A DNA stretch of 64,000 nt from Candidatus Aldehydirespirator sp. (GTDB taxonomy: Bacteria > Actinomycetota > Acidimicrobiia > Acidimicrobiales > Aldehydirespiratoraceae), in NCBI GenBank assembly GCA_965220345.1, contig OZ244822.1, positions 1,350,669 through 1,414,668 of the forward strand. Reading direction: 5' to 3'. Made by a program: the position numbers and the translations under genes. Positions 1 through 36,388 of the stretch are shown piece after piece. The notes beneath the pieces are model-generated. The model ran no database searches. It was not told where the DNA came from and saw only the letters and a list, made by a program, of their open reading frames with translations. The number at the start of each line of letters is the position of its first letter. Positions within the stretch are counted from its first letter, which is position 1.

Positions 1-379
1 CTTCCACGCTGGGAGGCAGCCCCGCCTCTACGGGATGCTCCGACAGGATGCGCTGAGCGAAGGAATGCAGGGTGCCCACTGCTGCGCCGTCGAGTTGCTG
101 CAAAGCCGTAGCGGCCTGTTCGCTCCCTAAGTCCGCAAGAGCTTCGCTGCTTTTGAGTCGACTGCGGATCCTGTCTCGGAGTTCGGCTGCGGCTTTCTCG
201 GTGAAGGTAATGGCTGCGATGTTCTCTAACGGCACACCCGAACCGATGAGTGCCAGCACCCGGTCGACGAGCGCTTTGGTCTTACCTGAGCCAGCTCCTG
301 CTTCTACGAACAGCGTGCTGCTCAGATCGGATCTGATTGTCTCGCGGTTTGCTTGGTCCGCCAACTGCGATGAGGTCAC
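1..379 (-). CDS. UvrD/PcrA-type SF1 helicase subunit of an AddA/AdnB-like helicase-nuclease (about 126 N-terminal codons; the gene runs off the left edge)
   Basis: Not in the ORF track because it is open at the window edge. My minus-strand translation from GTG at 379 reads VTSSQLADQANRETIRSDLSSTLFVEAGAGSGKTKALVDRVLALIGSGVPLENIAAITFTEKAAAELRDRI...GTLHSFAQRIL. This shows Walker A GAGSGKT, motif Ia TFTEKAA and TLHSFA. The GTG overlaps the TGA of the upstream gene (GTGA at 376-379). Confidence 0.85.
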   Translation of the reverse strand, partial: MTSSQLADQANRETIRSDLSSTLFVEAGAGSGKTKALVDRVLALIGSGVPLENIAAITFTEKAAAELRDRIRSRLKSSEALADLGSEQAATALQQLDGAAVGTLHSFAQRILSEHPVEAGLPPSVE

Positions 380-3300
380 GCTGCCCCCTCGACTGGATGT
401 TCTGCTGCTTGCGCTGCTGCCTGATCCTGCTCAGGATCGGGATCAACTTGAGTCTGTTCACGATTGGGATCAATGAGATCCAAATAACGAGCCATATCGG
501 GATCGTCTTGTTTGCGCTGCCAGTCGCGCCACTGGTCACGGGTGCCTAGACCATCGGGATCGCAAAAGTCACAGGAAACCCACGGCTGTCCGCTGGGTTC
601 ATCGGGATGCAACGGAAATAAGCCTTCACCGATCCCGTCAATGATGGTATTGACAGCTTCAAGCACCTGTTGGCGAGCAAGGTCGGTGGGGTAGCCGAAA
701 TCGTTGAACTGACCTTTGGTCGAAATGAACCAGTAGGCACCTTGACCACTTGCGGACTGCGAGACTTCGAGCAGCTCGCGGGCTGCTAGGTCATATATCA
801 CGAGCTGGAGATGTTGACCGCCGAGTGTCGGATCATCAGGGCTGAGCTTCTCGTATGCCTTGGCGGAGCCTGTCTTGTAGTCGATTACTAGCAGGCCTCC
901 GTCGGGAGTAATGTCAACACGGTCGATGGAGCCGCGAACATTCACAGAACGCTCTTTTGCGATTTCGATGCTGACAGGGCCGCTGGCGCTGCCGGGCAAT
1001 CCGAAGTTGAGTTCCGCTCTGGCGGGCTTTGAGCTGTAGAGAGAACGCTTCTCCTCGTCGAATTCCAAAAAGCGGACAAGGTCTCCCGTGATCTGGCGGC
1101 GATCGTGCTGCCAGTAGAGCTGGCGGCCGACCAGTCCACGAGCGGCGAACTTGTCGCATTCTTGTGCGGCTAGTTCAAGAAGTCGAGCTTGTTGCGGTTC
1201 GGGCCAATGCTGCACCGGCTCAGGCACGGTGTCTTCGGCGATGGCTTCTTTGAGCCAGAGTTCAAGAATGCGATGCACGAGGCTGCCGCGCTCCAGCGCG
1301 CTGATGCGGTAGTCGTCGTCGGAATCGTCAACTGGGTTGACTCTCAAGACGTAGCGAATGAAGTAGGCATGAGGGCATCGCGCCCACAACTCCAGCCGTG
1401 AAGCAGAGAGTATGGTGCCGTCAATGTCGGGATGCGATAGCTCCGCGCCTCGCAGCTTGCCTGCTGACAGGTTGCCGTCGAAGCGGGTCAATTTTGATGA
1501 CATACGGGCTCGACGCATCTCGATCCCTCGCCGTATTTCCGGCCGGTTTTGCACTTCTGGAATCTGACTGAGTTGGCTCCATCGGCTGGCATCGCGGTTT
1601 TTGGAGTCGTGCCAGTCGAGCAGGCGGCGCGTGTCGTAATCTTGCGCGTGAGCCGGGAAAGCTGTGCGACGCAGGCCAGCCACAAATGACGGCACCACTT
1701 CGGGTTCACCCACGTAGTCAAGCAGCCAGCGGCTCGGCGAGCGGTCAGCGGCTCGGCGCAGATCGCCTCTAGGGCATAAGAGCAGAGTCTCTTTGGCAGC
1801 AGCTAGCACGGCTAGCAGCGCCCGGTGATCATCGCCTGACCGGTCGCTTCGTGCGGGCAGATCATGACCAACGACACGCCGTTCTCGATCAGGCAGCAGT
1901 GTGTCGTCGCTGCGGCGAGCTGGGAAAGCACCCTCGGCCATGCCGCACACCACCGCAAAATCAAGCTCCAGACCGACCGCTAGACCCACCGGCCCCACAA
2001 ACACACCTGAGCCCAAGCGTCCGTGCTGGCTTGACGAGGTCCCCATCTCGTGGCGCAAAGCTCGTCTGAACACCGCCACTGAGGCTGGCTCTCCTGTGCT
2101 ATCAAGCTCGCTAAGCCACTTGATGGCTTGATCGACGCGGTTGGCCATTTCTCGTTCATCGTTGGGCCAACTGGAGCGGGTTCGGCCTCCGAGGTATTTA
2201 TGAACTAGGTCTTGACACCATTTGGATAGTTCGGCCCATGAGTGCAGCGGTGTTGACGGATTCAGGTCGCTGTGCAGTTCTGTCACAAAGCTGCGAAGCT
2301 CATCGGCTCTAAGGGCGTTGCGGCGCACCCTGTCTGTCTGCCACGACTGTTCTTCGTTGAGTTGCAATCGGTCGGCTTCATCCCGACGATCAGCGGCGTA
2401 GCGTTCGAGCCGCTGTTGCCAACTGTCGATGCCTGCTTCAACTCGGGCTGCCCGAGCGATTCGCTCCCAGGCTGCTGTGGGAGCGCTCTGCCATTGTTTG
2501 CTGGTTGAAGCACTGCCGGTTGAAGCGGAGTGGTTTGCGTCGGTTGTGTTAGCTGTGTCTGCGTCGGTTGTGTCGGCTGCGGTTTCGGAACTTTGATGAT
2601 CCGCTATTCGCACACTTGTGGGCGCGCCGGTCAGCCATGCCATCACAGCACGACGCGAGAACCCTCGTCCGTAAGGCTTCCGTTCATTTTGGTGCCCGGC
2701 TTGCTCGCTGTCGGCCAGTGCCAGCATCTCCAACAGAGAGCGACCCAGAAGTGATGTCTCCACAGTATGAACCGTTGAGCCGCATCGTGGGATGCCAGCC
2801 GCGTCTAAGGCATCGCCGATTAGACGGGCATACGGTGTATCAAGTCCGTAGAGAATGGCGCATCGACCCAGCGGCGTGCCTTTGCGGGTTGCGTCAACCA
2901 CGGCACGCAAGGCGTGTCGCACTTCGTCGTCAGCGTCGGACAAGCTCAACGCCCGCAGGTTGCCCCCCAGAGTTTCGTGGGCTGACAGTTCTGGATGGGG
3001 AATCGGCTGAGGGACAGCCTGGTTTAAGCCGAGGCGCTGCAAGCAGGTCCAGACGGCTGCGTCGGCATCTTGTGCCCCAGTGAGACCAGCGATGATCTTG
3101 ATGCCGATCGTTTCGGCCACTGCCCGCAACAGCAGCGTCTGAGTGCGAGTGAAGCTGTGAGGCAAGAACAAGATCACCAGACCAAGCTTCCGCTTTGCTT
3201 GATCAGGGTCGTTTCGCAGCAGTTTCAAGGCAGTCTCAGCCAAGTGTGTCGCAGAGGTGAAACCAGCATTGTCAAGGTCAGAGGCAACTTGGCGATGAAT

Positions 3301-3855
3301 CCTCACAACATCTTGGGCCCGCAGCGACTCGCCTGCGAGCTTCTCAAGCTGTGTGTCAGTTAGTTCCGAAAGCTCACGGTGCGCCCGTGCTATGGCCAGT
3401 TCGGTGGCAGGATGGTTCTCGACACCGCGAAAGTGCCCAGGATTTTCGCGCAGCGCCACACGAACCGTTGATGCGATGATCGCACTGCTAGCGCCTCGAT
3501 GCTTCTTGGGTGACATGTTCGTGGCTGCGAGCCGCTCGGCAAGCCTGTGAACAGTAAGGCAAGCCACAGCAGCAATCCCGCTAGTTGCAAACTGCTGACC
3601 GTCCTGAGTTTGCCGAACACCGTGAGGCAGTTGATCATCTTGAGACGGATGAGCGGCCAACGCTCGCCGGGCGGCCAAGCCCACATAGTTGCTCGGCACC
3701 ACCACAGTCACCGGTGCTAGGCAGTCACCAGCTTTAGCCTCGGCCACAGCATCAGCCAGCGCCTGATGTGCAGGCGCCCCGAAAGCCGTACGGGTCAGCT
3801 CAATCTTCGTGCCGTTCGTCGGATCACTCGCCCCGAAGGTCACCTCGTTTGCCAT
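376..3855 (-). CDS. AddB/AdnA-like RecB-family (PD-(D/E)XK) nuclease subunit of a two-subunit helicase-nuclease
   Basis: 1159-aa ORF. The C-terminal nuclease region has IDRVDITPDGGLLVIDYKTGSA (D...D-Y-K) and QLVIYDLA. Cysteines RCPHAYF ... SCDFCDP resemble the AddB Fe-S staple. The N-terminal region (VVVPSNYVGLAARRAL) lacks a canonical GxGKT. The gene is translationally coupled to the downstream UvrD-like gene. Confidence 0.8.
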   Translation of the reverse strand: MANEVTFGASDPTNGTKIELTRTAFGAPAHQALADAVAEAKAGDCLAPVTVVVPSNYVGLAARRALAAHPSQDDQLPHGVRQTQDGQQFATSGIAAVACLTVHRLAERLAATNMSPKKHRGASSAIIASTVRVALRENPGHFRGVENHPATELAIARAHRELSELTDTQLEKLAGESLRAQDVVRIHRQVASDLDNAGFTSATHLAETALKLLRNDPDQAKRKLGLVILFLPHSFTRTQTLLLRAVAETIGIKIIAGLTGAQDADAAVWTCLQRLGLNQAVPQPIPHPELSAHETLGGNLRALSLSDADDEVRHALRAVVDATRKGTPLGRCAILYGLDTPYARLIGDALDAAGIPRCGSTVHTVETSLLGRSLLEMLALADSEQAGHQNERKPYGRGFSRRAVMAWLTGAPTSVRIADHQSSETAADTTDADTANTTDANHSASTGSASTSKQWQSAPTAAWERIARAARVEAGIDSWQQRLERYAADRRDEADRLQLNEEQSWQTDRVRRNALRADELRSFVTELHSDLNPSTPLHSWAELSKWCQDLVHKYLGGRTRSSWPNDEREMANRVDQAIKWLSELDSTGEPASVAVFRRALRHEMGTSSSQHGRLGSGVFVGPVGLAVGLELDFAVVCGMAEGAFPARRSDDTLLPDRERRVVGHDLPARSDRSGDDHRALLAVLAAAKETLLLCPRGDLRRAADRSPSRWLLDYVGEPEVVPSFVAGLRRTAFPAHAQDYDTRRLLDWHDSKNRDASRWSQLSQIPEVQNRPEIRRGIEMRRARMSSKLTRFDGNLSAGKLRGAELSHPDIDGTILSASRLELWARCPHAYFIRYVLRVNPVDDSDDDYRISALERGSLVHRILELWLKEAIAEDTVPEPVQHWPEPQQARLLELAAQECDKFAARGLVGRQLYWQHDRRQITGDLVRFLEFDEEKRSLYSSKPARAELNFGLPGSASGPVSIEIAKERSVNVRGSIDRVDITPDGGLLVIDYKTGSAKAYEKLSPDDPTLGGQHLQLVIYDLAARELLEVSQSASGQGAYWFISTKGQFNDFGYPTDLARQQVLEAVNTIIDGIGEGLFPLHPDEPSGQPWVSCDFCDPDGLGTRDQWRDWQRKQDDPDMARYLDLIDPNREQTQVDPDPEQDQAAAQAAEHPVEGAA

Positions 3856-3864
3856 GCCCGCACC

Positions 3865-4884
3865 TTACGCCAGGGGTGTGACATGGGTCTTTTTGATCAT
3901 TAGGCGGATCCACTCGCCGGAGGTGATCGGCTCATGGTGTGGAGGATCATCGGGTGAAGTGCATGTCGGGATGCACTCAATAACCGCGTCATAGGCGGGC
4001 TGATGAAAGAACGCCACCGAGATACGGCTGCCGACGGCTTGTTCGTGGACCACCACCCGATGCTGAGTTGACACCCAGCGATCATTAGTCCATGCCGCCA
4101 TTAGATCACCGAGGTTCACCACTAGGGCATCAGCGACCGTCGGCACATCGCACCAGTCGCCTTCAGGGGACAGAACCTGCAGACCCGGCTGCCCGTCATG
4201 ATGCAGGATTGTCAAACTTCCCCAATCGCTGTGAGGGCCTCGCCGGTACTGCCCAGGCAGCGCAGGTGCCTCCAGTTCTGGATAGTGAAGCACTGTGAGA
4301 CCGGTGATGTGCTCAGCGATTTTGTCGTCGAACCAGTGTTCGTCCAGGTTCAGTGCCAGAGCCATCAACCGCATCAGCTCACCGGCCAGAGCCTCCAGTG
4401 CCGCATAGCAGTCGTTTAGAGCCTCTCGGAAGTCGGGAACTTGTTCGGGATCAGGCCACACGTTGGGAGCAAAGAAAGACGCTCGACCGGCATCTTGCCC
4501 AGCATGTGAGCCAGCCCGAGAAGCGTCAGCGGGATCATCAAAGCGGCTCACAGAAAAAGCCTCGGCCAAGTCAGGAGGAGTCACTTCGTCGTGAGCTAGC
4601 GCCAGCGCCGAACTGCGTAACGGCACATAACCAAGACGGTTCTGGTCATGGCGCACCCAAGACATCTTCACCTGCAACGGCAGCGCGAACAGCTGCCGCG
4701 AAACAGAGTCCACTCTCTGCAGCAGTTCTCCAGGGATGCCGTGACCGGTGATTAGCAGGAAGCCGACATCTTCGCAGGCTCGGCGAATGGCATCCACGGC
4801 ATCGTCTCGTTGAGCGCCCGGCTCGAAAGCACCCGACAGATCCACCAACGGCACCCGATCCGCCATAGATGAAGAAGAAGTCAT
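3865..4884 (-). CDS. 2-oxoglutarate/Fe(II)-dependent oxygenase (isopenicillin N synthase-like family)
   Basis: N-terminus VPLVDLSG...AIRRACEDVGFLLITGHGIP, and an HxD...H core (GPHSDWGSLTILHHD ... STQHRVV). The ORF is open to 4992, but ATG at 4884 (MTSSSSMADRVPLVDLS) abuts the stop of the upstream gene (4887) and avoids a 106-nt overlap. Confidence 0.8.
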   Translation of the reverse strand: MTSSSSMADRVPLVDLSGAFEPGAQRDDAVDAIRRACEDVGFLLITGHGIPGELLQRVDSVSRQLFALPLQVKMSWVRHDQNRLGYVPLRSSALALAHDEVTPPDLAEAFSVSRFDDPADASRAGSHAGQDAGRASFFAPNVWPDPEQVPDFREALNDCYAALEALAGELMRLMALALNLDEHWFDDKIAEHITGLTVLHYPELEAPALPGQYRRGPHSDWGSLTILHHDGQPGLQVLSPEGDWCDVPTVADALVVNLGDLMAAWTNDRWVSTQHRVVVHEQAVGSRISVAFFHQPAYDAVIECIPTCTSPDDPPHHEPITSGEWIRLMIKKTHVTPLA

Positions 4885-4886
4885 GT

Positions 4887-5282
4887 TCAGGGGAATAGGG
4901 CGCTGAGGCCGGTCCAGATCAGCCAAAGGCCGATGACGATGAACGGTCCTGGTATAGCGATGAACACGATCCAGGTCAGGGAACGCACCCATCCGGGCCG
5001 GTCAGCGAAGCGTCGCTGATGGAAGGCTGCGTCAAGTCGTTCAGCCTCCAGATCAGGCTGCTCAAGCCCCAGCAAGTCAGCGGCTACCTCAGCGACCTCC
5101 ACTCGCACCACCAGCAAAGCAAGCCGGTGAGTCATGTGATGAGGAGCCACTTCGCTGGCCGGATCAACCAGCACGGTCGCCTCATATCCGGCCTCCTGCA
5201 AGCGCGCCGCGGCGACATCAGCCTCAAAACGGCTGGGATACTCAGCGATGGCGACCATCCCCGGCAGCGGTCTCATCCTCAT
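4887..5282 (-). CDS. hypothetical membrane-anchored protein (small soluble N-domain plus C-terminal TM helix)
   Basis: 131-aa ORF in the same orientation as, and tightly packed with, the oxygenase gene. The C-terminal hydrophobic stretch WIVFIAIPGPFIVIGLWLIWTGL suggests a TM helix. No diagnostic motif found. Confidence 0.5.
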   Translation of the reverse strand: MRMRPLPGMVAIAEYPSRFEADVAAARLQEAGYEATVLVDPASEVAPHHMTHRLALLVVRVEVAEVAADLLGLEQPDLEAERLDAAFHQRRFADRPGWVRSLTWIVFIAIPGPFIVIGLWLIWTGLSALFP

Positions 5283-26762: not shown

Positions 26763-26894
26763 ACTATCAGCCCCGATATGACTCTACCCATTAGACGAGC
26801 ACCGAAGCATCCAGCGATGATGACAACGAAGTGTCCCCACGGCTGATCCAACGCAGCACAGAGCGCTTGAGATGAGGTTGGAGTCCGTTGTGTC

Positions 26895-28274
26895 TCAGCC
26901 GCCTGGTGATCCCACGTCTAACCCACCGGGTGTCTGCACACCCCCATCACCAGTTCCCAGAGCGCCTTCTTCTGCAGGATCATCCTGCTTGGTAGCTTTG
27001 TCGCTGGTTTTTGGTGGGGCATCGTTGGAGCTATCTATTTGTTGTGGAGTGTCCTCAGGGTCGCTCGCATTCTCAGTAGATCCATCTTCGGCGCTAGGCG
27101 CGTTCTCATCGCTATCCGCGCCTGGTGTGCTCTCTGCATCAGAGTTAGCTTCCCCAGAATCGCTTTCCGCTTGTTCGTTCGACTCCTCTTCTGGGCTGTC
27201 ATCAGATTCTGTTCCGAGTAATTCGGTGCCACCAAGATCAGGCTGGTCTGAATTATTAGGATTAGGCTGGTCTGAGGCATCACTGGGTTCGTTGTCAGTA
27301 CCAGATTCGCTTTCTGTGTTAGGTGTGTTTGCATCAGGTAAACTTTCCTCGAGCGGGTCGCCGCTATTGCCGTCTCCGAGTTCAGCAGAACCTTCTTTGT
27401 CAGTGCCAGTATCGCCAACCTTGCTGCCTGTGTCCGGGATGGTCTCGGCATCAGAGTCAGCCTCCCCAGAATCGCTTTCCGCTTGTTCGTTCGACTCCTC
27501 TTCTGCGGGCACTTCGTCCAAACCGGTGGTCTGTTCCTCGGGCGGGCCGACCGTGTCTTCAATCCCCGACTTAGCCAACTCCGCAGCATCACGAGCATCC
27601 TGCAAATCATACGGAAACACCCAATCATACTCACCTTCCTCATCCACCTGCACCACATCGATAAAAGGTTTGCCCTTTCCGTAACCCAGAGAATTGTCGT
27701 CATATATGCGCACTACTCCACCAAGCGTTTTGATCCAGTACAGCCCCAACGCATATCCTTGTGTTCCTAGATCGCTAGGTCCCGCATAGACTAAATACTG
27801 TGGTGAGTCATCCGAACCGATACTTCTGATTCCATCTTCAAATAACTCGATCTCTCTATCGAAGAGCCTTGACTTTTTACTACCATCAAGAGTTTCCTGC
27901 AGAGCAAGAACTCCTAAAGTGATACGAGATTCAGATTCGGGCATCTCACCAATTAGCACTTCATCAGCTTCAAGTACGATACCCTCATAGACATCGACCA
28001 CTTCCCAATCTGACTCGGCAACAGATAACATGCCGGTTGTAGGCGGTTCTATAATGAGGCGCTCCTTATAGTCGACTACTCGGCCAATAAAAACTACTTC
28101 AGCAGCGTCAGTAATCGCATTGATATCGTCATATAGATGTTCATAAGCATGGATATATGCTACAGGAATGTTCTCATCAAGAACAGTCAAATTTCGTGCA
28201 CCTGAATTATTGCTACAGGAAGCAGATAGTAGTAAAAAAGTACCTAGAATCATAGATATAATTTTGTAATTCAT
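26895..28274 (-). CDS. lipoprotein with a long acidic low-complexity C-terminal region containing a duplicated segment
   Basis: Signal/lipobox MNYKIISMILGTFLLLSASC. EEESNEQAESDSGEA(D/N)SDAE occurs twice. The 5' half of the gene is visibly AT-rich. Confidence 0.7.
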   Translation of the reverse strand: MNYKIISMILGTFLLLSASCSNNSGARNLTVLDENIPVAYIHAYEHLYDDINAITDAAEVVFIGRVVDYKERLIIEPPTTGMLSVAESDWEVVDVYEGIVLEADEVLIGEMPESESRITLGVLALQETLDGSKKSRLFDREIELFEDGIRSIGSDDSPQYLVYAGPSDLGTQGYALGLYWIKTLGGVVRIYDDNSLGYGKGKPFIDVVQVDEEGEYDWVFPYDLQDARDAAELAKSGIEDTVGPPEEQTTGLDEVPAEEESNEQAESDSGEADSDAETIPDTGSKVGDTGTDKEGSAELGDGNSGDPLEESLPDANTPNTESESGTDNEPSDASDQPNPNNSDQPDLGGTELLGTESDDSPEEESNEQAESDSGEANSDAESTPGADSDENAPSAEDGSTENASDPEDTPQQIDSSNDAPPKTSDKATKQDDPAEEGALGTGDGGVQTPGGLDVGSPGG

Positions 28275-28319
28275 ACTAATACATACTCTCTAATATTGAA
28301 GTTGTATAGCTATAATTTC

Positions 28320-28790
28320 TCACCGGTCTAGCATATTATTCATACCATCATTCACACAACTTGATTCAGAGTTGCCGTGATGAAAGCCTATACTATGAGC
28401 CAATTCATGGCAAACCATATTCTTCCGGCTCAACACAGTTTCACTATTGTAGGCATCCGAATCGATTTCTATTGTGCCACGATTACATATAGTGGTACCT
28501 CCAGATTCAGTCGTGCATCGAAACCAAGCAAGAATCTCAGAGTTCTCAATCGGAATGACTTGCCATGTGAGATCTGCTAATTCGCGAGTTCCTGCCTCTC
28601 TTAGAGTTATATCAGTGTTGGCATATACATCATCTCCGCCAGTTTTGAAGTAGGACTGCCATTGCTTACGCTCATCTTTATCGTCCTCAATAGAACGGTA
28701 TGTATGAAGACTATCTGCTGCGAAGGGCAAACCAATCTCTATCCGCTTTTGTCGGTGATTCCAAAAGGAGAAGCAGAGAAGTGGCGGCAA
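28320..28790 (-). CDS. small metzincin-type zinc metalloprotease (snapalysin-like)
   Basis: HELAHSIGFHH fits HExxHxxGxxH and is followed by SSCVNDGM (a possible Met-turn). TTG start with GAAGG 8 nt upstream. No signal peptide. Overlaps the upstream ORF by 52 nt in another frame. Confidence 0.6.
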   Translation of the reverse strand: MPPLLCFSFWNHRQKRIEIGLPFAADSLHTYRSIEDDKDERKQWQSYFKTGGDDVYANTDITLREAGTRELADLTWQVIPIENSEILAWFRCTTESGGTTICNRGTIEIDSDAYNSETVLSRKNMVCHELAHSIGFHHGNSESSCVNDGMNNMLDR

Positions 28791-29452
28791 TAACTGCCTT
28801 CTTTAAGGGTAACCAGCTTGTATTTTTCCGCACAACCTTGAGATGCGGTATTAGCACTACGACGGCATTTACTGCCCTCTAGAGTCCAGTTATCACTTCC
28901 GAATGTAATTGGTACAGCTTTACGCCGCTGCGGAGTAAGTGCGACCTTGACTACCCCTTCGCAATGAGCAACTGGCGGAGATACAGTCTCAACCTTCTTC
29001 TTGCACTTGTTATCACTGCGATCAATGATGTGACCATCAGAGCATAACAACTCTGGCGGCTTCCGTTTCTCTATCTTCCGCTGACGAGTCTCATACACAG
29101 GTTCAAAATTGAGAACCTCACGATCCTCATAATTGAAAACCTCCTGATCCTCATAATTAAACACCTCACGAGTCTTCGTCACCTGCTGATTCTCATAATT
29201 CTCAACACTCTCAGTCTCATAATTAAACACCACACGCCACTCATAATTATAATCAGGCACACTCTCATAATTATAATTTGGGATTGTCTCATAATTGTAG
29301 ACTGCACGCGTCTCATAATTATACACCGGAACTGTGTTATACTTAACAACACTCCGCGTCTCATAATTATAAGCTGGCACCGTCTTCCAGACCGTCCGAT
29401 AACCCGTCTTGCGTATAATCCTATAATTCCACTTCAAACACCTACCCATCAA
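28739..29452 (-). CDS. YNYE-repeat protein with Cys-containing C-terminal domain (probably the distal part of one TAG-interrupted gene)
   Basis: 237-aa AT-rich ORF. Roughly a dozen degenerate 7-9-aa repeats (PAYNYETR, PVYNYETR, AVYNYET, PNYNYES, PDYNYEW, VFNYETE, VFNYEDQ, VFNYEDR, VLNFEP). No signal peptide of its own. Confidence 0.5.
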   Translation of the reverse strand: MMGRCLKWNYRIIRKTGYRTVWKTVPAYNYETRSVVKYNTVPVYNYETRAVYNYETIPNYNYESVPDYNYEWRVVFNYETESVENYENQQVTKTREVFNYEDQEVFNYEDREVLNFEPVYETRQRKIEKRKPPELLCSDGHIIDRSDNKCKKKVETVSPPVAHCEGVVKVALTPQRRKAVPITFGSDNWTLEGSKCRRSANTASQGCAEKYKLVTLKEGSYCRHFSASPFGITDKSG

Positions 29453-29464
29453 ATACTCATTACA

Positions 29465-30121
29465 CTAACTACGCTCACGAACCGTATACGAATACGACTC
29501 ACGAACCGACACCCGCTCCGTGAACGGAGCCACACGCACCCGCACAGAAAACGGAGGAACCCTCACCTGCTTCGTAAACGGAGCCACACGCACCTGCCTG
29601 TTGAAAGGCGCAACCCGAACCTGCCTCGTAAACGGAGCCACACGCACGCGTTCACTAAACGGCGGCACACGACGCTCACCGGTCTTCACCTCATAATCCT
29701 CAAGTATCGTCGCTACGCACTGCCCAGACCCCGAATCAAACACCCACGACAACGGATCCTCCGTCGTCGCAAAACAACTCACAACTGGATCCACCACCGA
29801 AACCGACGAAACCACACACTTACCATCACGCAAAACAACCGAAGACCCCACAGGAACCGCAGCACACTTCTTCAACGCATCCACACTCACCACACCAGAA
29901 CACCGCGACGATGACACCTCATATACGAGTCCCGGTGGGCACAACGGCGGCCTCGCCAACAACTCTTTAGTGGCCGGTACCCGTTCCTCTATATCCGCCT
30001 GAGCAGGAACCGGCACCGATGTCAATAGCACAACCACCGCAACAAGCAGCCAACACCATCGCCTCCTCACCAGCAAGCCCAACACGCTCATAGCCAAACT
30101 ATGACACGCAGGCTGCGCCAC
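29465..30121 (-). CDS. secreted Cys-containing protein with RVAPF nonapeptide repeats
   Basis: Signal peptide (LLVAVVVLLTSVPVPAQA). C-terminal repeats are VPPFSERVR/VAPFTRQVR/VAPFNRQVR/VAPFTKQVR/VPPFSVRVR/VAPFTERVS. Ends at a TAG that is in frame with the next ORF. Confidence 0.6.
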   Translation of the reverse strand: MAQPACHSLAMSVLGLLVRRRWCWLLVAVVVLLTSVPVPAQADIEERVPATKELLARPPLCPPGLVYEVSSSRCSGVVSVDALKKCAAVPVGSSVVLRDGKCVVSSVSVVDPVVSCFATTEDPLSWVFDSGSGQCVATILEDYEVKTGERRVPPFSERVRVAPFTRQVRVAPFNRQVRVAPFTKQVRVPPFSVRVRVAPFTERVSVRESYSYTVRERS

Positions 30122-30148
30122 GTCAAGAGCCAGCCACTCATGTAGCGT

Positions 30149-30493
30149 TCAACTGGGTTGGATGCCGAGGCGCATTAGTGCAGCCCTGCGGATCTGTTCT
30201 CCGACTGTTAGCAGAAAAGTGTCAAGGGGCAGAGTGCCTATGCCTCTTGTGTCGTCGTCGGGTTGGATCACAGCTGCTTTCGGAGCGACGATGTAGCTGT
30301 GGCCGCTGAAGTGAGGGTGTTGTTTGATCAACGCTTCAAGACCTCGGTGGCTGTGGCCGGGCGACGAAGCGACCTCAATGGCTAGGGGCTGTTGCGGGTC
30401 GACATAGATCAGATCGACTTCGTGGTCGGCATTTCTCCAATAGTGAAGTCGCACACCAGCGTGTGCAGCGAGGGTATGCAGAGTCGCTGCCAT
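30149..30493 (-). pseudogene. C-terminal remnant of an AAA/DUF4143-family ATPase
   Basis: HYWRNADHEVDLIYVDPQQPLAIEVASS matches the C-terminal module of DUF4143 ATPases (compare SHLRTHKGVHEIDAVIETPEGGIIAIEIKSA in the 55528 gene). The P-loop half is absent. Confidence 0.6.
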
Positions 30494-30546
30494 AGAACTT
30501 TCGGCGGAGTGAGTGAAGCTTAGGCGGCTTGGGGTTGAAGTGAGTC

Positions 30547-31170
30547 TCAGCTAAGGTCAGCAAGCTCGTTGGCAACGACGGGGCAGTCAATGTTTGCGGG
30601 ACCGGAGCGAATGAGGTCAGCGAGCGTGTCGTCATCCACGGGTGCGAAATCCCATGCGTCGACTCCGACGTTGATTTGTCGGTCGTTCTGCCGCCATTTT
30701 TCGTGGATGTGCCCGTGCAGCAGCCAGCCGCCAGTGTCTTCTGGACGATATTGCTGATAGCGCTGGTCATGGTGAGAGTCGTTGCGGTACGGGAAGTGGT
30801 TGACGAGCACATCAACGTCTGCTAGCGAGACCGGCGCAGGGTCATCAAGAATCTCAGCGATCCCGCCAAGACGGTAGTAGACCTCTTTTTGTTTGGGGCC
30901 TTTGCGGTGATGCTGCCAGCAAGCGTCATGGTTGCCTGGCACCAGAATCTTGTGTCCCTTGAGACGCGCCACATGGTCTTTGAGCCGTTTCGGTAGCTGG
31001 TTCATCACTAGGTCACCGAGCATCCACACCTCGTCGCTATCAGCTACAACATCATTCCAGCGTTCCACCATCGCTTCGCTCATCTCATCTGAGTTAGCGA
31101 ACGGACGGGCGCAGTAGCGGATGATGTTCTCATGGCCGAAATGCTGATCAGAAGTCCACCACCGAGTCAT
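30547..31170 (-). CDS. calcineurin-like metallophosphoesterase
   Basis: WWTSDQHFGHENI, MLGDL, VPGNHD, LLHGHIH. Confidence 0.8.
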   Translation of the reverse strand: MTRWWTSDQHFGHENIIRYCARPFANSDEMSEAMVERWNDVVADSDEVWMLGDLVMNQLPKRLKDHVARLKGHKILVPGNHDACWQHHRKGPKQKEVYYRLGGIAEILDDPAPVSLADVDVLVNHFPYRNDSHHDQRYQQYRPEDTGGWLLHGHIHEKWRQNDRQINVGVDAWDFAPVDDDTLADLIRSGPANIDCPVVANELADLS

Positions 31171-31330: not shown

Positions 31331-31636
31331 ATGACTACTCATTCCTGCCCCACCACCAAGTATCCACGCGCTGACACAGCGACCACCACGCGCATGGGGC
31401 GCACTCTCCGCTCAATGCGGCGCGAACTCGGCTTGACACAAGCAGAGACAGCTCGTCGTGCAGGGATGTCCCGAGAGTCCGTTTCCATGATTGAGAGGGG
31501 ACGTAGTACACAGTCGGGGACACTGCTCAACCTTCTGCATGTGCTGGGTTATCACCTAGCCTTCCTTCCCTACACGCCAGAAGAAGAGGCTCTGGTTGAG
31601 CGTGACCAGATGCGGCATCGCATCAATCCAACCTAG
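31331..31636 (+). CDS. XRE-family HTH regulator (HipB-like antitoxin)
   Basis: LRSMRRELGLTQAETARRAGMSRESVSMIERGR. Followed directly by a HipA N-terminal remnant. Confidence 0.85.
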   Translation: MTTHSCPTTKYPRADTATTTRMGRTLRSMRRELGLTQAETARRAGMSRESVSMIERGRSTQSGTLLNLLHVLGYHLAFLPYTPEEEALVERDQMRHRINPT

Positions 31637-31638
31637 CG

Positions 31639-31858
31639 ATGATCTGGTCGCTCCAAGTATTTATGGGGAGGCAGCTTGCTGGGAGAGGCAGCTTGCTGGG
31701 AGAGCCAGCCCCGCCAGATGCTTGGGGGACACATCGCTTTTCGATACGAGGCTGCGTACCAGGAAGACCCGACTAATACGCCCATCTCGGTAACTGCCCC
31801 TCTAACCAACGATGCTTACAATGGCGGTGCCCGACCGCTCAGCATCTGCCTGGATTAG
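31639..31858 (+). pseudogene. HipA-family toxin, frameshifted and truncated N-terminal remnant
   Basis: ATG lies 2 nt after the XRE stop. SLQVFMGRQLAG (frame 1) and GGHIAFRYEAAYQEDPTNTPISVTAPL (frame 2) recall the E. coli HipA N-terminus (LVTWMNNQRVGEL...HTFKYAPEWL...RPLSLSLPL). A 17-bp tandem duplication sits at 31669-31702. The kinase core is absent. Confidence 0.5.
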
Positions 31859-31927
31859 TGCGGACAAGTCATGCGTAGTGCGGACAAGTCATGCGTAGTG
31901 CGGACAAGTCATGCGTAGTGCGGACAA
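31857..31927. repeat. 20-bp tandem direct repeat (agtgcggacaagtcatgcgt), 3 full copies plus 1 partial
   Basis: Perfect copies at 31857-31876, 31877-31896 and 31897-31916, then agtgcggacaa. The array starts exactly where the hipA remnant ends and finishes about 20 nt before ATG 31950. Confidence 0.9.
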
Positions 31928-31949
31928 ATAGTGTGTAGTATGAACGGTA

Positions 31950-33224
31950 ATGGAGAATCCTTTCACGCCTGATTTTGGTTGTCGTCCGTCACGTATGGTC
32001 GGCTCAAACCCGATTTTGAGCAGGGTAGCTGCCACATTAGCAAGTGGTCCCTTGAGACCTGACTTCACGCGACTGCTGCTGGGTCCACGAGGTTCTGGTA
32101 AGACGGTGTTGCTGTATGAGATCGCAGAGAGCGCTGCACGCAACGGGTATTTCGTAGTGTTGGTCGATGCCTCCACTCCTGGACTGCCAGAACGCATCGC
32201 GGCAGGGATTGCAGAAACAAAAAGAGTTCATCCCACACTCAACATCCCCAACAGGCGCCGCCTGTCGGGGATTCACATAGGTCCAGTGGGATTCAATTTT
32301 CAGACAGTACCAGACCCTGAACCTAAGGAAGGGTTGAAACAACATCTACTAGGGATAGCAGCATGGGCAGAGCAGCATGACACTCGTGCAGTCCTCATCG
32401 TTGATGAAGTTCATGCAGGCGAACGCGAAGAGTTGCGGCGTTTAGCCTCAGAGGTGCAAGCCATAACGAAGGGTATGGAGCTGCCGTTGGCGCTGGTTGC
32501 AGCTGGTCTTACAGAGATGACGCACACAGTGCTGCGCGACAAGAAAATGACCTTCTTCCACAGATGCCATCGTGATCATGTTCCTCTCCTAACTCATGAC
32601 GAAGCTTGGAATGGATTGAGAACTATCATCAACGAGGCACAAGGCGAAATCACCCCGGATGCGCTTGATGTGATGGCAGAAGCGCTCGACGGGAGTCTCC
32701 CGTATCATCTGCAAAGCTTGGGGCATCATGCTTGGGTGATGGCGGGAGCACCGACACAACCCATTGATGCTGATGTGGCTGCATCCGCTTTGAAACAAGC
32801 CAGCAAGGATCTAGCCGAACGAATCGTGGAGCCCATGTGGCACGATCTGTCGGACAAAGACCAGATGTATCTAGCCGCTGTAGCAGCCAACGCAGGTAAC
32901 ACCACCCCTTCTGAAATCGCAGAAACCATGGCGATGGTGTTCAGTAGGAAAGAATTACGCCGATCAGAATCTCGTCTAGAAGCGGCCGGGCATATCGAAG
33001 TAACCACCAGCGGCAGGATCGTGATGCAAGGTCCGTTGACCGTAGAAGCACTCCACAAGCTCGAAGAACTAGAAGCGAGATACGAAACTCGAAAAACTTC
33101 GCGTCCTTACCCGGTCACCGTCCCATCCAGAACGCTTTCACGATGCAACTCATATATGCCACGCGTACAAGCTCACTGTGTGCTACCGCGGGGGCATAAA
33201 GGCGGGCACCGCTCCAGAATATGA
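31950..33224 (+). CDS. P-loop NTPase of the Arch_ATPase/AAA_16 type with a C-terminal winged-helix-like region
   Basis: NPFTPDFG...LLLGPRGSGKTVLLYEI (Walker A), VLIVDEVH (Walker B), and C-terminal SEIAETMAMVFSRKELRRSESRLEAAGHIEV. Confidence 0.8.
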   Translation: MENPFTPDFGCRPSRMVGSNPILSRVAATLASGPLRPDFTRLLLGPRGSGKTVLLYEIAESAARNGYFVVLVDASTPGLPERIAAGIAETKRVHPTLNIPNRRRLSGIHIGPVGFNFQTVPDPEPKEGLKQHLLGIAAWAEQHDTRAVLIVDEVHAGEREELRRLASEVQAITKGMELPLALVAAGLTEMTHTVLRDKKMTFFHRCHRDHVPLLTHDEAWNGLRTIINEAQGEITPDALDVMAEALDGSLPYHLQSLGHHAWVMAGAPTQPIDADVAASALKQASKDLAERIVEPMWHDLSDKDQMYLAAVAANAGNTTPSEIAETMAMVFSRKELRRSESRLEAAGHIEVTTSGRIVMQGPLTVEALHKLEELEARYETRKTSRPYPVTVPSRTLSRCNSYMPRVQAHCVLPRGHKGGHRSRI

Positions 33225-33278: not shown

Positions 33279-36035
33279 TTAGTCGTTGTCTTTGATGGTT
33301 AAGACGGGTTGTTTGTCGCTGATGTGTACGCCGCCTGTGGGTTCTGATAATACGATTGTGAATGTTTCATCTGGTTCTTTGATGCGATCATTCAACGCGT
33401 ATATCAAACCCATATTTAAAGTCACACCCGGCCTGAAAGACACAGTTGAGGTCCGTAACACGAAATCCTGGCCTGCTGTCGCATATCCAGTACCTGTACC
33501 AAGTATCCCAGGAGTGTACTTAACTGTCACCTGTTCACTAGAAGGCTTGCTCAACCTGAAACGAACAAGATAAAACGGACTCCGACCCTCAACATAAGTA
33601 GCCTCCTCCACAGAAATCGTAACCACATCTGCAGGCGGCGGCGGTGATGGTGGTGGGTTGTCATCATCTGAGACCGTTACTGTTGCTGAAGATGCTGAAG
33701 AGTCCACATCGTAAGCAGCGCTGTTGACTACTGTGACGGTTATTGAGCCGTCGGCTTCGTCAGTGTTGTCGTTGCTGGTTGCGATGGTGAGTGTGGTGGT
33801 GCCGTCGGTTCCGATTGTGATTGTGCGGTGGCCGGTGGTGACTGCGTAGTTGCCGTTAGCTGTGATGTTCACTGATACGTCTAGTGCTGCTGCTGGTGCG
33901 GGGGTTGCGGTGAGCGTGAAGGTTGCGTTGTCGCCTTCGGTTATGTCGCTGTTAGCGGTGATAGCAATCTCAGGAGTAGCTGGCACAGGGTCAACAGGCG
34001 GCACTGGGTCAACCGGTGGTGTGGTTTCGGGTTCGTTTTGGGTTTGGTCTGTTACAGAATCTTCGGTTTGCGGTGGCGGGTTTGCTGCTAATGCGGTGAG
34101 TGCTTCTGCGACTGGGTTCCAGCGGATACGCCAGTAGGTTTGCGCGTATTTTTGTGCTTCAGTCGCGGTCATGGGGGTGCCAGTGAACCCAGGTACGGTT
34201 TCTCCGAAGGCTAGGAGTACTCGTTTCCAACGGTTTACGTGTGCAGCACCGTTTTGGGTTTCTGCTGCATAGCCTTGCACATCAGCTATCAAGCTTTGTG
34301 GGACTGTGTAGCTAGGGGTTTTTATTGTGTCGCCGTTTTCGCTTTGGGGTTGAACCGTTTCTGAGTCCTGCGCTTGTGGTGGTGGGGCTGCTTCTAGCGC
34401 GGTGAGTGCTGTGACTACTGGGTTCCAGCGGGTCCAGCCTTTGTCTGCGTAGGTTTGCGCTTCAGCAGCAGTCATGGATGCTCCCGTGAACCCGGGCACG
34501 GTTTCGCCGAAAGCGACCAGTACACGTTTCCAACGATTCACATGCTCGTCACCGTTGGATGTTTCAGCCGCATAAGAACGAACATCATCAACAAGACTTT
34601 GCGGTACCGTTTCTAAGCTGGTGATAGTGTCTTGGCCTCCTGCGACGACATAAACCGGTGAAATACCATACAGCGGAAATATGAAATGTGAGGAACCCGA
34701 TTGTACATTAATCGGTTTAGCAATGCCGGAATTAGTTAAGGAAGAGTCCCCGGCAATCACTCTACTTCCGCCAAGTGAGGTTCCATTGCCACTCCTGCCA
34801 TTAGTTTGCGTGCCTGTCCAAACACCTCGTAGACTGTTGGTGTAATCGTAGTTATGCGCCGATCCTTGCTCGTTGCGTCGGTTGCTCACTAAATAGTTTT
34901 CCCAGGCATTCGACCAGAAACCCATCCTGTCGGTGTTGCTGTAGTCTTGGCTTACACGTAGTCCATTCAGCCAGTACACTGGCGCTGCGATATCACCAGG
35001 CCGCATCAGTGTGTGAACACGAGCATGCACTGTGGGTGTTGATGCTACTGCCCGATATTTTGACGCGTGTTCTCGTATTGCTATATGACCACGACGTGCT
35101 GCGTTTTGCACGAAAGCGTCGTAATCCGCGATGTCTGCTGATGAGCCGTCACGACCTGTTGATGTTATAAACAACAACCGGAATCTGTCGCCCGATCCTA
35201 TGCCGTCAGGGATCAGCGGCCAATTCTGGGGCACCGCCTGCTGGCTGTTCACAGGGACCTTCGCCCACTCACGCAGATCGGTGATCGCGTCGGCTTGGGC
35301 AACATTTGGTGGGTTGGGGTTTTTGATGCACCATTGCACATAGCCGGTTTCTTTGATGCCGAGGTTACGAAAGAAGCTTCGCATGAACTGTTTATGAACC
35401 CCAAATTGGCCAGGAGTATCAAAACATATGCTATCAACATGAGTTCCAGAACGTTTCGGCATTGTTGATATACCGTCAGTGAAAGACGGCCATGCTACGT
35501 CCCTTTTTTGTGCTGAGTTTCCGTTAACGTCTCTAGGGATCATAGTCAAACCGAAGCTTTTCGACCCATGATCTTTATAGATAGTCTCGCTGCCGCCAGC
35601 TAGCAGCGCATCAAGCTGGATTTCCTCGGTGTGGTAGTAGGTACGGGCTACTCCTACACATGAACGTGGGTTTGGGTGACTTGTTGTCTTACCTTCGAAA
35701 GTGAAAGTCACCGGGTCTAGATAGTGGCCTCCTTCGCATCGGTTTGTGTTGCTGGTGTTTTTGTTCGGGTTTTTGGCTTGCAGCGATACCGACCAAACAC
35801 GATCTGCTTTCACTTCGCAACGCAATTCTTCAGCATCAGACTGCGTTCCTGTGCAATCCGCTACATAGTTAGAGTAATTCACTAACCATTGTGGTAGGTA
35901 GCGTACGCCGTTGGGTTGGGTTCGCCATCCGCCTTGCGCTACAGCAGGAGCGACAGACACAACCCCCAACAAAGCAGCCACAAGCGCACCAGCTACAAAA
36001 CAACCCCCAACACGCCACCCGAGCCGTCGACACAT
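33279..36035 (-). CDS. large secreted surface protein with two Calx-beta-like domains and an internal ~90-aa duplication
   Basis: Signal peptide MCRRLGWRVGGCFVAGALVAALLGVVSVAPAVAQG. A duplicated module VPQSL(V/I)(D/A)DV..YAAET.NG..HVNRWKRVL.AFGETVPGFTG. A C-terminal Calx-beta signature (YATAGQDFV...NDRIKEPDETFTIVL). The ORF is open to a TTG at 36077. Confidence 0.8.
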   Translation of the reverse strand: MCRRLGWRVGGCFVAGALVAALLGVVSVAPAVAQGGWRTQPNGVRYLPQWLVNYSNYVADCTGTQSDAEELRCEVKADRVWSVSLQAKNPNKNTSNTNRCEGGHYLDPVTFTFEGKTTSHPNPRSCVGVARTYYHTEEIQLDALLAGGSETIYKDHGSKSFGLTMIPRDVNGNSAQKRDVAWPSFTDGISTMPKRSGTHVDSICFDTPGQFGVHKQFMRSFFRNLGIKETGYVQWCIKNPNPPNVAQADAITDLREWAKVPVNSQQAVPQNWPLIPDGIGSGDRFRLLFITSTGRDGSSADIADYDAFVQNAARRGHIAIREHASKYRAVASTPTVHARVHTLMRPGDIAAPVYWLNGLRVSQDYSNTDRMGFWSNAWENYLVSNRRNEQGSAHNYDYTNSLRGVWTGTQTNGRSGNGTSLGGSRVIAGDSSLTNSGIAKPINVQSGSSHFIFPLYGISPVYVVAGGQDTITSLETVPQSLVDDVRSYAAETSNGDEHVNRWKRVLVAFGETVPGFTGASMTAAEAQTYADKGWTRWNPVVTALTALEAAPPPQAQDSETVQPQSENGDTIKTPSYTVPQSLIADVQGYAAETQNGAAHVNRWKRVLLAFGETVPGFTGTPMTATEAQKYAQTYWRIRWNPVAEALTALAANPPPQTEDSVTDQTQNEPETTPPVDPVPPVDPVPATPEIAITANSDITEGDNATFTLTATPAPAAALDVSVNITANGNYAVTTGHRTITIGTDGTTTLTIATSNDNTDEADGSITVTVVNSAAYDVDSSASSATVTVSDDDNPPPSPPPPADVVTISVEEATYVEGRSPFYLVRFRLSKPSSEQVTVKYTPGILGTGTGYATAGQDFVLRTSTVSFRPGVTLNMGLIYALNDRIKEPDETFTIVLSEPTGGVHISDKQPVLTIKDND

Positions 36036-36049
36036 GCTAACAACCCCGC

Positions 36050-36061
36050 GGGGGGGGGGGG
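36050..36061. repeat. G12 (C12 on the coding strand) homopolymeric tract at the 5' end of the surface-protein gene
   Basis: Read directly: ...caaccccgc gggggggggggg cagcc... Confidence 0.95.
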
Positions 36062-36388
36062 CAGCCAGCATCAACAAATCTCAACCAACCCCCAAAACGC
36101 TTCACCACACCGGTCATAACAAACCTCCTAAACAGCCCCCACCAAAACAGGCAGGAACCACTACTATCCATAATAAACCCAACCCTACCACACCCCAACC
36201 CCAAACACGCAACGGGAGCACGGGACCAACCAGAAGCAGCCACAAGGGCAGGTCTGATGCGACCTGTCGGGTGGCTAGTTCTCCTGAGGCTGCGGTCAAG
36301 CACTTTCGACATCTGAGCTATGCGGACAGTCCTAGACGCTCAAGCAGAGCCCGTGAACCCGTTAACAACGAAGGCGTTTCTACGCTTT

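Follow-up and report, generated by a model that had tools for sequence, protein, structure and literature searches.

Three open reading frames (ORFs) follow one another on the minus strand of the window, which is the whole 64,000-nucleotide stretch of the Candidatus Aldehydirespirator sp. contig analysed in this study.

29465-30121, minus strand: first ORF, 218 aa, with the mechanical ORF start GTG at 30121
28739-29452, minus strand: second ORF, 237 aa, with YNYE-type repeats and a second Cys domain
28320-28790, minus strand: third ORF, 156 aa, with HELAHSIGFHH

The public record gives the first ORF as a protein of 208 aa starting at ATG 30091. Its N-terminus resembles a signal peptide and is followed by a domain with six Cys and by an array of six RVAPF-type 9-aa repeats, for which TRF gave a period of 27 and 4.8 copies. 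The TAG at 29465-29467 closes the first ORF and is followed by TGT AAT GAG TAT TTG ATG with the frame unchanged, and the third ORF overlaps the second by 52 nt (28739-28790) in a different frame. The ORFs, repeats, Cys domains, TAG, overlap and HELAHSIGFHH reported by an earlier reading made from the letters alone (the sequence-only reading) were all present on this strand. Pfam and NCBIfam gave no match for the first two ORFs.

The read-through translation matched single proteins elsewhere with E-values from 1e-230 down to 1e-60, so the arrangement of the ORFs is not random, and the suggestion that the two ORF halves were formerly one gene was borne out. All relatives carry a sense codon at the position of the TAG, and the possibility that each half has unrelated homologues turned out not to be the case. 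The proteins P0005, P0006, P0007 and P0009 (556-635 aa; Acidimicrobiales) run in a single frame across all three ORFs of the window; P0003 and P0004 likewise span all three, but their N-terminus is missing. Read from the N-terminus, the intact proteins comprise a signal peptide, a Cys domain, the RVAPF repeats, a disulfide hinge, the YNYE repeats, a second Cys domain and, at the C-terminus, an MMP-like metzincin. The sequence-only reading had expected one protein of about 460 aa, which was right in joining the halves and too small, as the ancestral unit is about 610 aa and includes the metzincin. The ORF that it had called an overlapping small metzincin belongs to the same gene: it encodes the C-terminal catalytic domain, which a 1-nt deletion has shifted out of frame. 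It had also correctly noticed that the second and third ORFs have no signal peptide, and this is because both are internal fragments. We are therefore confident that the locus is a pseudogene, in which an ancestral secreted protease gene of about 610 codons was cut into three ORFs within an inserted two-gene cassette. Its parts are as follows.

28290-30091, minus strand: whole pseudogene (very probable), ancestral start ATG 30091 and ancestral stop TAG 28290-28292; colinear with P0005, P0006, P0007 and P0009, with a DNA alignment to L001
30098-30126, minus strand: promoter-like site TTGACG, 17-nt spacer, tgCATAGT, from a consensus scan; sequence conserved in L001
29996-30091, minus strand: signal-peptide-like N-terminus MSVLGLLVRRRWCWLLVAVVVLLTSVPVPAQA, read from the translation
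29717-29941, minus strand: first Cys-rich beta domain with six Cys, from the alignment with relatives
29510-29674, minus strand: N-arm, six RVAPF-type 9-aa repeats, from TRF and alignments
29423-29464, minus strand: hinge CNEYLMGRCLKWNY, two conserved Cys at the predicted hairpin tip, motif C..C..W.Y in 18 relatives
29084-29374, minus strand: C-arm, YNYE-type 8-aa repeats ending in NFEPVYETR
28787-29044, minus strand: second Cys-rich domain, from alignments
28290-28724, minus strand: C-terminal MMP-like metzincin catalytic domain (FAADS...LQY), from alignment A4
28377-28409, minus strand: zinc-binding motif HELAHSIGFHH (HExxHxxGxxH)

The promoter-like site ends 6 nt before ATG 30091, which suggests that a transcript starting there would be leaderless.

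The lesions were called by base-by-base DNA alignment to L001, the copy in the sister genome.

29465-29467, minus strand: lesion 1, nonsense change TCG to TAG; TCG (Ser) in L001 and Ser in P0001/P0002
between 28743 and 28744, minus strand: lesion 2, 1-nt deletion, GCG-GATAG in the window against GCGCGATAG in L001
28320-28322, minus strand: lesion 3, nonsense change TGG to TGA; TGG (Trp) in L001

In the other relatives, the site of the TAG has an Asp, Gly, Arg or Ser context. Through lesion 2 the protease domain comes to be read in the -1 frame, which accounts for the 52-nt overlap; L001, P0001, P0003 and P0005 have a single frame across this site. Lesion 3 cuts off the conserved C-terminal WEIIAIQLQY, the codons of which remain at 28293-28319. 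In addition, the RVAPF array is 81 nt (three repeats) shorter than that of L001. Several independent disabling lesions, a recently inserted segment and neighbouring gene fragments such as a DUF4143 remnant are shared with ordinary bacterial pseudogenes, from which the window copy does not differ in any notable way. Phase variation was considered and rejected, as the lesions are substitutions and a non-repeat indel, with no change in a simple-sequence tract. The split ORF, for all its resemblance to recoding, is thus nothing more than a pseudogene, and its annotation should show the remnant of one gene instead of three hypothetical proteins.

We gave next to no chance to programmed recoding, in which read-through of the TAG and a -1 ribosomal frameshift would yield the full-length protein. 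In its favour, the ORFs on either side of the TAG share a frame, and the ORF of the protease is offset into the -1 frame, overlapping by 52 nt. The two signals are not conserved, however: L001 reads TCG where the window has the TAG, it has one base more at the shift site, and the intact relatives are single-frame. A -1 ribosomal frameshift signal is a slippery heptamer X XXY YYZ, and the shift site GAC AAA AGC GGA TAG contains no such heptamer. A third in-frame stop, the TGA at 28320-28322, would need suppression as well. TAG is a normal terminator, ending 9 of the 39 long ORFs in the window, and code reassignment was ruled out on the same count. The window contains no tRNA gene, and so no suppressor tRNA, and no Rfam element. 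The TAG at 29465-29467 is the only one in the window between two open stretches of at least 150 codons. With TAG serving as a regular terminator in the rest of the window and the lesions not conserved, the locus is read as a decaying pseudogene and not as a case of recoding. No support was found for the read-through or frameshifting raised in the sequence-only reading: the nearest relative has TCG in place of the TAG, the deletion is at a non-slippery site, and TGG has become TGA at a third place.

Whether the gene is really intact, with the three lesions being sequencing or assembly errors in the consensus, was weighed against the kind of damage. Two of the three lesions are stop-creating substitutions, the indel is outside any homopolymer and an 81-nt repeat loss is present as well, so we consider this explanation very unlikely, although the source resembles a long-read metagenome-assembled chromosome (2.82 Mb) and such assemblies may hold indel errors. 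The other copies also argue against it. L001 has indels in the signal-peptide region and a separate 1-nt insertion, and in L002 the reading frame is interrupted past the signal peptide; because these independent assemblies show lesions of their own, and different ones, the decay looks like a property of the lineage. P0001, the second copy in the window's own genome, is without a signal peptide and is cut short inside the protease domain. A functional split, with the fragments expressed as separate proteins that have taken on new functions (a secreted protein of 208 aa with the Cys domain and repeats would be one), is highly unlikely in our opinion, although the secreted N-terminal fragment of 208 aa may still be expressed. 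Fragments two and three have no signal peptide, the protease fragment is without the conserved C-terminal helix, the N-arm is left without a pairing partner, and such a split was seen in no relative. The promoter-like site, start codon and signal peptide of the first fragment are intact, and so is the downstream lipoprotein gene with its lipobox Cys, and these are the points in favour of a split. We therefore retained the pseudogene as the explanation of the locus.

The pseudogene lies within a segment that the sister genome does not have, and a second gene lies downstream of it.

26789-30559, no strand assigned: inserted segment of 3.77 kb replacing 111 bp of the sister genome, from blastn of L007 against the window
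26895-28274, minus strand: partner gene, 459-aa lipoprotein with the lipobox LLSAS-C, from blastp, tblastn, homologues, AlphaFold2 and Foldseek

The blastn matches end where L007 10611 corresponds to window 30560 and L007 10723 to window 26788. In the sister genome, a metallophosphoesterase gene is directly followed by nucS and the 3.8-kb segment is absent. Besides the pseudogene and the lipoprotein gene, the segment contains a fragment of a DUF4143 gene (30149-30493). The protease gene and the lipoprotein gene form a two-gene cassette, and the segment that contains it is inserted between the metallophosphoesterase gene and nucS.

In the lipoprotein, a conserved domain of some 210 aa is combined with a low-complexity tail that is acidic, and Pfam and NCBIfam gave no match for this protein. 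A lipoprotein gene of the same family was found 3' of the protease gene at every protease locus examined (L001, L002, L003, L004, L008 and L009), including the stand-alone protease locus L008, where it was matched by hmmsearch with an E-value of 6e-23, and one to five such genes stand in tandem downstream. Protease type A (window and L001) is paired with the lipoproteins P0162/P0167, and protease type B (P0011 in L009) with a P0171/P0169-type lipoprotein; P0169, reported on a contig of equal length to that of P0001, may adjoin it. In the AlphaFold2 model of the lipoprotein, the core had a pLDDT of 75-90 and the mean was 55. The top Foldseek matches of this model were mostly TIMP-1/2, agrin NtA, complement C3/C345C and the PCOLCE NTR domain, and they were weak (E 0.017-0.1, target TM 0.3-0.56, rmsd 7-9 A). 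Type co-variation and these weak TIMP/NTR matches suggest that the lipoprotein is the cognate partner of the protease. The membrane-anchored protein encoded downstream would then most likely act as an inhibitor or immunity protein, and it may be a bacterial TIMP-like inhibitor.

Pairs of genes for a protease and its cognate inhibitor include the serralysin pair AprA-AprI/Inh in bacteria and MMP-TIMP in animals. Here too, the gene of a secreted metzincin directly precedes one for a small protein anchored in the envelope, and the types change together. Similarity of the lipoprotein to TIMP at the sequence or profile level is absent: hmmsearch of the lipoprotein profile A5 against PDB sequences found nothing relevant, and hhalign against TIMP-1/2 gave a probability of 0.06%. 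The TIMP mechanism requires a free N-terminal Cys1 that chelates the catalytic zinc. The lipoprotein has no free N-terminal Cys1; its sole N-terminal Cys belongs to the lipobox and should carry a lipid, and the folded domain begins about 25 residues after it.

The protease part was analysed with alignment A4, which comprises 22 protease domains. Within HExxHxxGxx(H/D), the residues H, E, H and G do not vary, and either H or D serves as the third ligand. A C-terminal IxxxY helix is nearly invariant in these 22 domains and is missing from the window copy. The Met of SCM, eight residues past the third ligand, is mostly conserved; it is Val (SSCV) in the window and L001, and Leu or Ile in a few others. 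The third ORF scored 14.9 bits against Pfam PF00413 (matrixin, M10), below the cut-off of 24, and its only matches were to metzincins, all of them below the Pfam cut-offs for M10, astacin, M8 and M57. Among the stand-alone proteins, P0040 and P0047 also had sub-threshold metzincin matches only, and P0031, P0033, P0035 and P0037 had no Pfam match at all. When the profile of A4 was searched against PDB sequences with hmmsearch, only leishmanolysin was found (E 0.01), with MMPs at E 0.3 or weaker. Because this profile search was weak, the placement among the metzincins rests on the motif and the fold. Residues 410-556 of the AlphaFold2 model of P0009 had a pLDDT above 90, and the top 50 Foldseek matches of P0009 in the PDB were catalytic domains of MMPs or of karilysin (E from 4e-5, target TM 0.5-0.63). 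As modelled for the orthologue P0009, the predicted fold of the protease domain is that of an MMP-like metzincin.

Compared with known MMPs (MEROPS M10; human MMP-7/MMP-12 and karilysin), the zinc motif HExxHxxGxx[H/D] is common to both, and a Met eight residues past the third ligand is the spacing of the MMP Met-turn, which is mostly kept in this family. The P0009 model of the domain superposes on MMP and karilysin catalytic domains, with only about 16% identity. Unlike MMPs, the family is without a cysteine-switch propeptide, and no PRCGxPD motif was present in the sequences read. Invariant cysteines (C..C, VCHE and SCM) and a C-terminal IN..Y end are specific to the family.

The two repeat arms on either side of the hinge differ in sequence and are similar in length. 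The lengths of the N-arm and C-arm correlated with a Pearson r of 0.91 (n = 18, not corrected for relatedness), with examples of 136/132, 127/124, 130/126, 103/102, 102/102, 94/95 and 112/111; three relatives deviated (112/132, 112/134 and 112/127). The N-arm of the window is 51 aa shorter than that of P0001, and the window arms are unbalanced (85 against 132 aa) because RVAPF repeats were lost. In the AlphaFold2 model of P0009, strands 187-220 and 225-256 were paired at the tip with a turn between them, and long strands were predicted at the arm bases (112-130 and 306-323); the middle of both arms had a pLDDT below 50. The equivalent of the first Cys domain in this model was all-beta, with a pLDDT of 80-90. 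From the arm-length correlation and the AlphaFold2 pairing, we infer that the two arms may form a hairpin stalk. The intact protein would be exported by way of a putative Sec signal peptide; its two arms, RVAPF and YNYE, would then pair antiparallel into a long two-stranded beta-hairpin, with a disulfide hinge closing the tip. Such pairing would join the two Cys-rich domains at the base, beside the MMP-like zinc protease domain. In that reading, the two arrays would be kept equal in length because the arms zip into one beta-hairpin.

P0001 and L001, which are orthologous, share 90-100% identity in the stalk module and only about 50-55% in the protease part. In the window copy, a block of the second Cys domain (28900-28985) is mosaic and has only about 45% identity to L001. 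The repeat stalk module also occurs with differing C-termini, which are the protease or FN3 arrays and other domains (P0008, P0025, P0027 and L006). In polymorphic toxin loci, the N-terminal part, for delivery or as a stalk, is conserved, the C-terminal domain can be exchanged, and immunity genes lie alongside, often in tandem. The loci of this study resemble them in the stalk module with differing C-termini, in the tandem lipoprotein genes, and in a cassette that is duplicated and often decayed; a conserved N-terminal part with a changing C-terminal domain and a co-varying adjacent gene was observed in a handful of loci. They are unlike such loci in that the searches gave no known toxin domain and none for delivery (Rhs/YD, type VII or other), and in that the candidate immunity protein is an exported lipoprotein. 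We tentatively speculated that the intact proteins are secreted effectors with a length-matched RVAPF/YNYE beta-hairpin stalk (about 100 residues long), an exchangeable MMP-like head and a co-varying TIMP-like lipoprotein, so that Acidimicrobiia would possess a polymorphic protease/inhibitor cassette of which the window holds a dead copy; this reading is possible, and we hold it with considerable doubt. Should the paired-arm stalk and the protease-inhibitor pairing be borne out, they would offer a case, open to testing, of heterologous repeats matched in length, and of protease/inhibitor cassettes that are exchangeable, in an actinobacterial class that has received little study.

The intact family, unusual in its build, has not been described before, and neither Pfam nor NCBIfam has a model for it; a search of the literature turned up no more than a mention of the host family in a taxonomic context. 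A protein family with a minimal MMP-like metzincin, a conserved lipoprotein partner and a repeat module with co-varying arms is the more useful by-product of this analysis.

The change in base composition described in the sequence-only reading is real, with GC falling from about 0.57 upstream to 0.40-0.47 downstream. Part of the drop is driven by amino-acid content, as GC2 goes down in the YNYE repeats, from about 0.5 to 0.2-0.3; another part is a genuine fall in GC3, from about 0.6 to 0.35. The idea that the AT-rich half is foreign DNA joined to a native half was kept only in part, in view of the GC2 effect and of the orthologues L002 and L003, which show the same GC gradient in a weaker form.

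Three ORFs were seen at this locus of the window:

29465-30121, minus strand: ORF 1, 218 aa
28739-29452, minus strand: ORF 2, 237 aa
28320-28790, minus strand: ORF 3, 156 aa, carrying HELAHSIGFHH

The TAG at 29465-29467 closes the 218-aa ORF and is followed in the same frame by TGT AAT GAG TAT TTG ATG, while the 156-aa ORF overlaps the 237-aa ORF by 52 nt in a different frame. TRF detected repeats of period 27 (4.8 copies) and period 24 (2.9 copies), and the GC content fell from about 0.57 to 0.40-0.47 at approximately 29450 in the direction of the minus strand. All the features listed in the sequence-only reading (ORFs, in-frame TAG, repeats, overlap, motif and GC drop) are real. Its proposal that the first two ORFs form one protein held only in part: a search with the read-through translation returned single proteins covering both halves, but these included the third ORF too. 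In the related proteins P0005, P0006, P0007 and P0009 (556-635 aa), a signal peptide, a Cys-rich domain, RVAPF-type repeats and a C..C..W.Y hinge are followed by YNYE-type repeats, a second Cys-rich domain and a C-terminal domain (HELxHSxGF, ...LQY end); P0003 and P0004 have the same domain order and start downstream of the signal peptide. Because single relatives span all three ORFs, the window ORFs are fragments of a single gene of about 610 codons that spans 30091 to 28290.

The C-terminal domain had a pLDDT above 90 in the AlphaFold2 model of P0009, and all of the top 50 Foldseek matches of this model in the PDB were catalytic domains of MMPs or karilysin (E from 4e-5, target TM 0.5-0.63). 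Since the family also carries HExxHxxGxx(H/D) with a mostly conserved Met eight residues later, the domain is a metzincin. We did not place it in M10 because it stays below every Pfam family threshold. An exhaustive profile search returned 398 proteins at E <=0.001. The protease domain also exists alone, in secreted proteins of about 185 aa; among six of these, Pfam gave no match for P0031, P0033, P0035 and P0037, and only sub-threshold metzincin matches for P0040 and P0047. The repeat module is also found in front of other C-termini, among them FN3 arrays and large uncharacterised domains (P0008, P0025, P0027 and, at the related locus L006, a 1279-aa protein).

One repeat arm was measured between the last Cys of domain 1 and the first Cys of the hinge, the other between the second hinge Cys and the Cys that comes after it. 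Their lengths were nearly equal (e.g., 136/132, 127/124, 130/126, 112/111, 103/102, 102/102 and 94/95), with a Pearson r of 0.91 in 18 proteins, not corrected for relatedness. In the P0009 model, strands 187-220 and 225-256 pair around the hinge, and long strands are predicted where the two arms have their base (112-130 and 306-323); confidence is low in the centres of the arms. We infer that the two arms pair antiparallel into a beta-hairpin stalk of about 100 residues.

The window was aligned base by base with L001, the sister-genome copy and the closest one with fetched DNA (2.83-Mb circular contig). The TAG of the window is TCG (Ser) in L001; one base is absent between 28744 and 28743 (GCG-GATAG in the window, GCGCGATAG in L001), which puts the protease domain into the -1 frame; and TGA at 28320-28322 is TGG in L001. 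Past this TGA, nine codons (EIIAIQLQY) and the ancestral TAG stop persist. The C-terminus lost in this way includes an I-N-x-x-Y end that is nearly invariant across 22 aligned protease domains. The window also lacks 81 nt (three RVAPF repeats) of L001, and its unequal arms (85 and 132 residues) are another sign of decay. The suggested read-through or frameshifting found no support: TAG is a normal terminator, ending 9 of the 39 long ORFs in the window, the shift site contains no slippery heptamer, and neither tRNA genes nor Rfam matches were found in the 64-kb window. Nowhere else in the window does a TAG lie between two open stretches of 150 codons or more.

Other copies are damaged as well. 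In L001, the signal-peptide region carries two 1-nt indels, and a 1-nt insertion of its own lies near codon 430. The sister-genome cassette is thus also decaying, as the lipobox Cys of its lipoprotein (L001 7844-9085) is changed to Trp (LLSAS-W). P0001, which lacks a signal peptide and ends inside the protease domain, is probably a second, differently damaged copy in the window's own genome, and the reading frame of the related locus L002 is interrupted between the signal peptide and the remainder of the gene. Intact-looking copies were found in more distant Acidimicrobiales; one of these, L003 (the same region as L005), comes from Candidatus Aldehydirespirator sp. We conclude that the locus is an ordinary pseudogene, correctly observed; the family from which it derives is undescribed and of moderate interest.

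In L007, the sister-genome counterpart of the insertion locus, the metallophosphoesterase gene is directly followed by nucS. The blastn break points against the window were 30560 and 26788; thus, a 3.77-kb segment (26789-30559) stands in place of 111 bp present in the sister genome. This segment contains:

30149-30493, minus strand: AAA_14/DUF4143 ATPase gene, C-terminal fragment (the gene is intact, 426 aa, in L002 2405-3685)
promoter-like site of the pseudogene: TTGACG-17-tgCATAGT, ending 6 nt before ATG 30091
28290-30091, minus strand: the pseudogene
26895-28274, minus strand: 459-aa lipoprotein gene

The DUF4143 fragment is inserted directly behind the stop codon of the metallophosphoesterase gene and is bounded on each side by AGYTGA, and a 125-nt piece of it (88% identical) adjoins transposase remnants in L007 (3305-3429). 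CTGG flanks the 3.3-kb protease/lipoprotein cassette on both sides (~30133 and ~26812), and the empty site in the sister genome reads GTGG-TTAACAGACCT-CTGG; these flanks could mark a microhomology junction or be coincidental. The cassette is adjoined by neither a transposase nor a recombinase gene. The flanking chromosome is 95-97% identical to the sister genome and the 5' half of the pseudogene about 90%; the protease domain and lipoprotein gene start (28270-28720 vs. L001 7400-7850) are about 99.5% identical, and block 28900-28985 only about 45%. This mosaic suggests that the 3' module has recently been exchanged or gene-converted.

Much of the GC drop stems from amino-acid content, as GC2 in the window is about 0.5 in the arm rich in R/V/A/P and only 0.2-0.3 in the one rich in Y/N/E, with the same dip in L002 and L003. 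GC3 in the window also falls, from about 0.6 to 0.35, and does not recover across the protease domain or the first part of the lipoprotein gene. Orthologues have a weaker gradient of this sort. The pattern is consistent with the protease-lipoprotein module being exchanged more often than the stalk.

Behind their protease gene, L001, L002, L003 and L004 carry homologous lipoprotein genes, between one and five in tandem; the stalk gene of L006, which has no protease part, lacks such a neighbour. In the distant genome of L008, one also follows the stand-alone protease P0037 with a 14-nt overlap (hmmsearch E 6e-23). Protease and lipoprotein types appear to change together. Between the window and L001, the protease domain is essentially identical and the lipoprotein N-domain 96.5% identical. 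P0001 and P0011 share a protease type differing from that of the window and L001, and the lipoprotein downstream of P0011 is closest to P0171 and P0169, of which P0169 seems, like P0001, to be encoded in the window's own genome. The AlphaFold2 model of the window lipoprotein (mean pLDDT 55, core 75-90) gave mostly TIMP-1/2 and other NTR modules as top Foldseek matches, all weak (E 0.017-0.1), and the sequence and profile tests against TIMP were negative. We consider a cognate inhibitor or immunity protein the most likely role, and give it about an even chance. Opposite the stretch of the lipoprotein gene that encodes its acidic low-complexity tail, the plus strand has a Ser/Pro-rich ORF of 270 aa (26872-27684), in all likelihood a shadow ORF.

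Elsewhere in the window, the ORFs of 1159 and 375 aa (376-3855 and 3865-4992, minus strand), separated by TAA and 9 nt, are the only other same-frame pair and are probably two adjacent genes. An Xre-type HTH gene followed by a 424-aa AAA/STAND-like NTPase gene (31331-33224, plus strand) is conserved in the sister genome (L007 8028-9884), with transposase and HTH gene fragments slightly beyond the pair in L007. The gene at 33279-36077 (minus strand) encodes a secreted protein of 932 aa that has a Calx-beta domain at its C-terminus and is internally duplicated over about 110 aa; it has diverged far more from the sister genome (68-85% nucleotide identity) than have its neighbours (95-97%).
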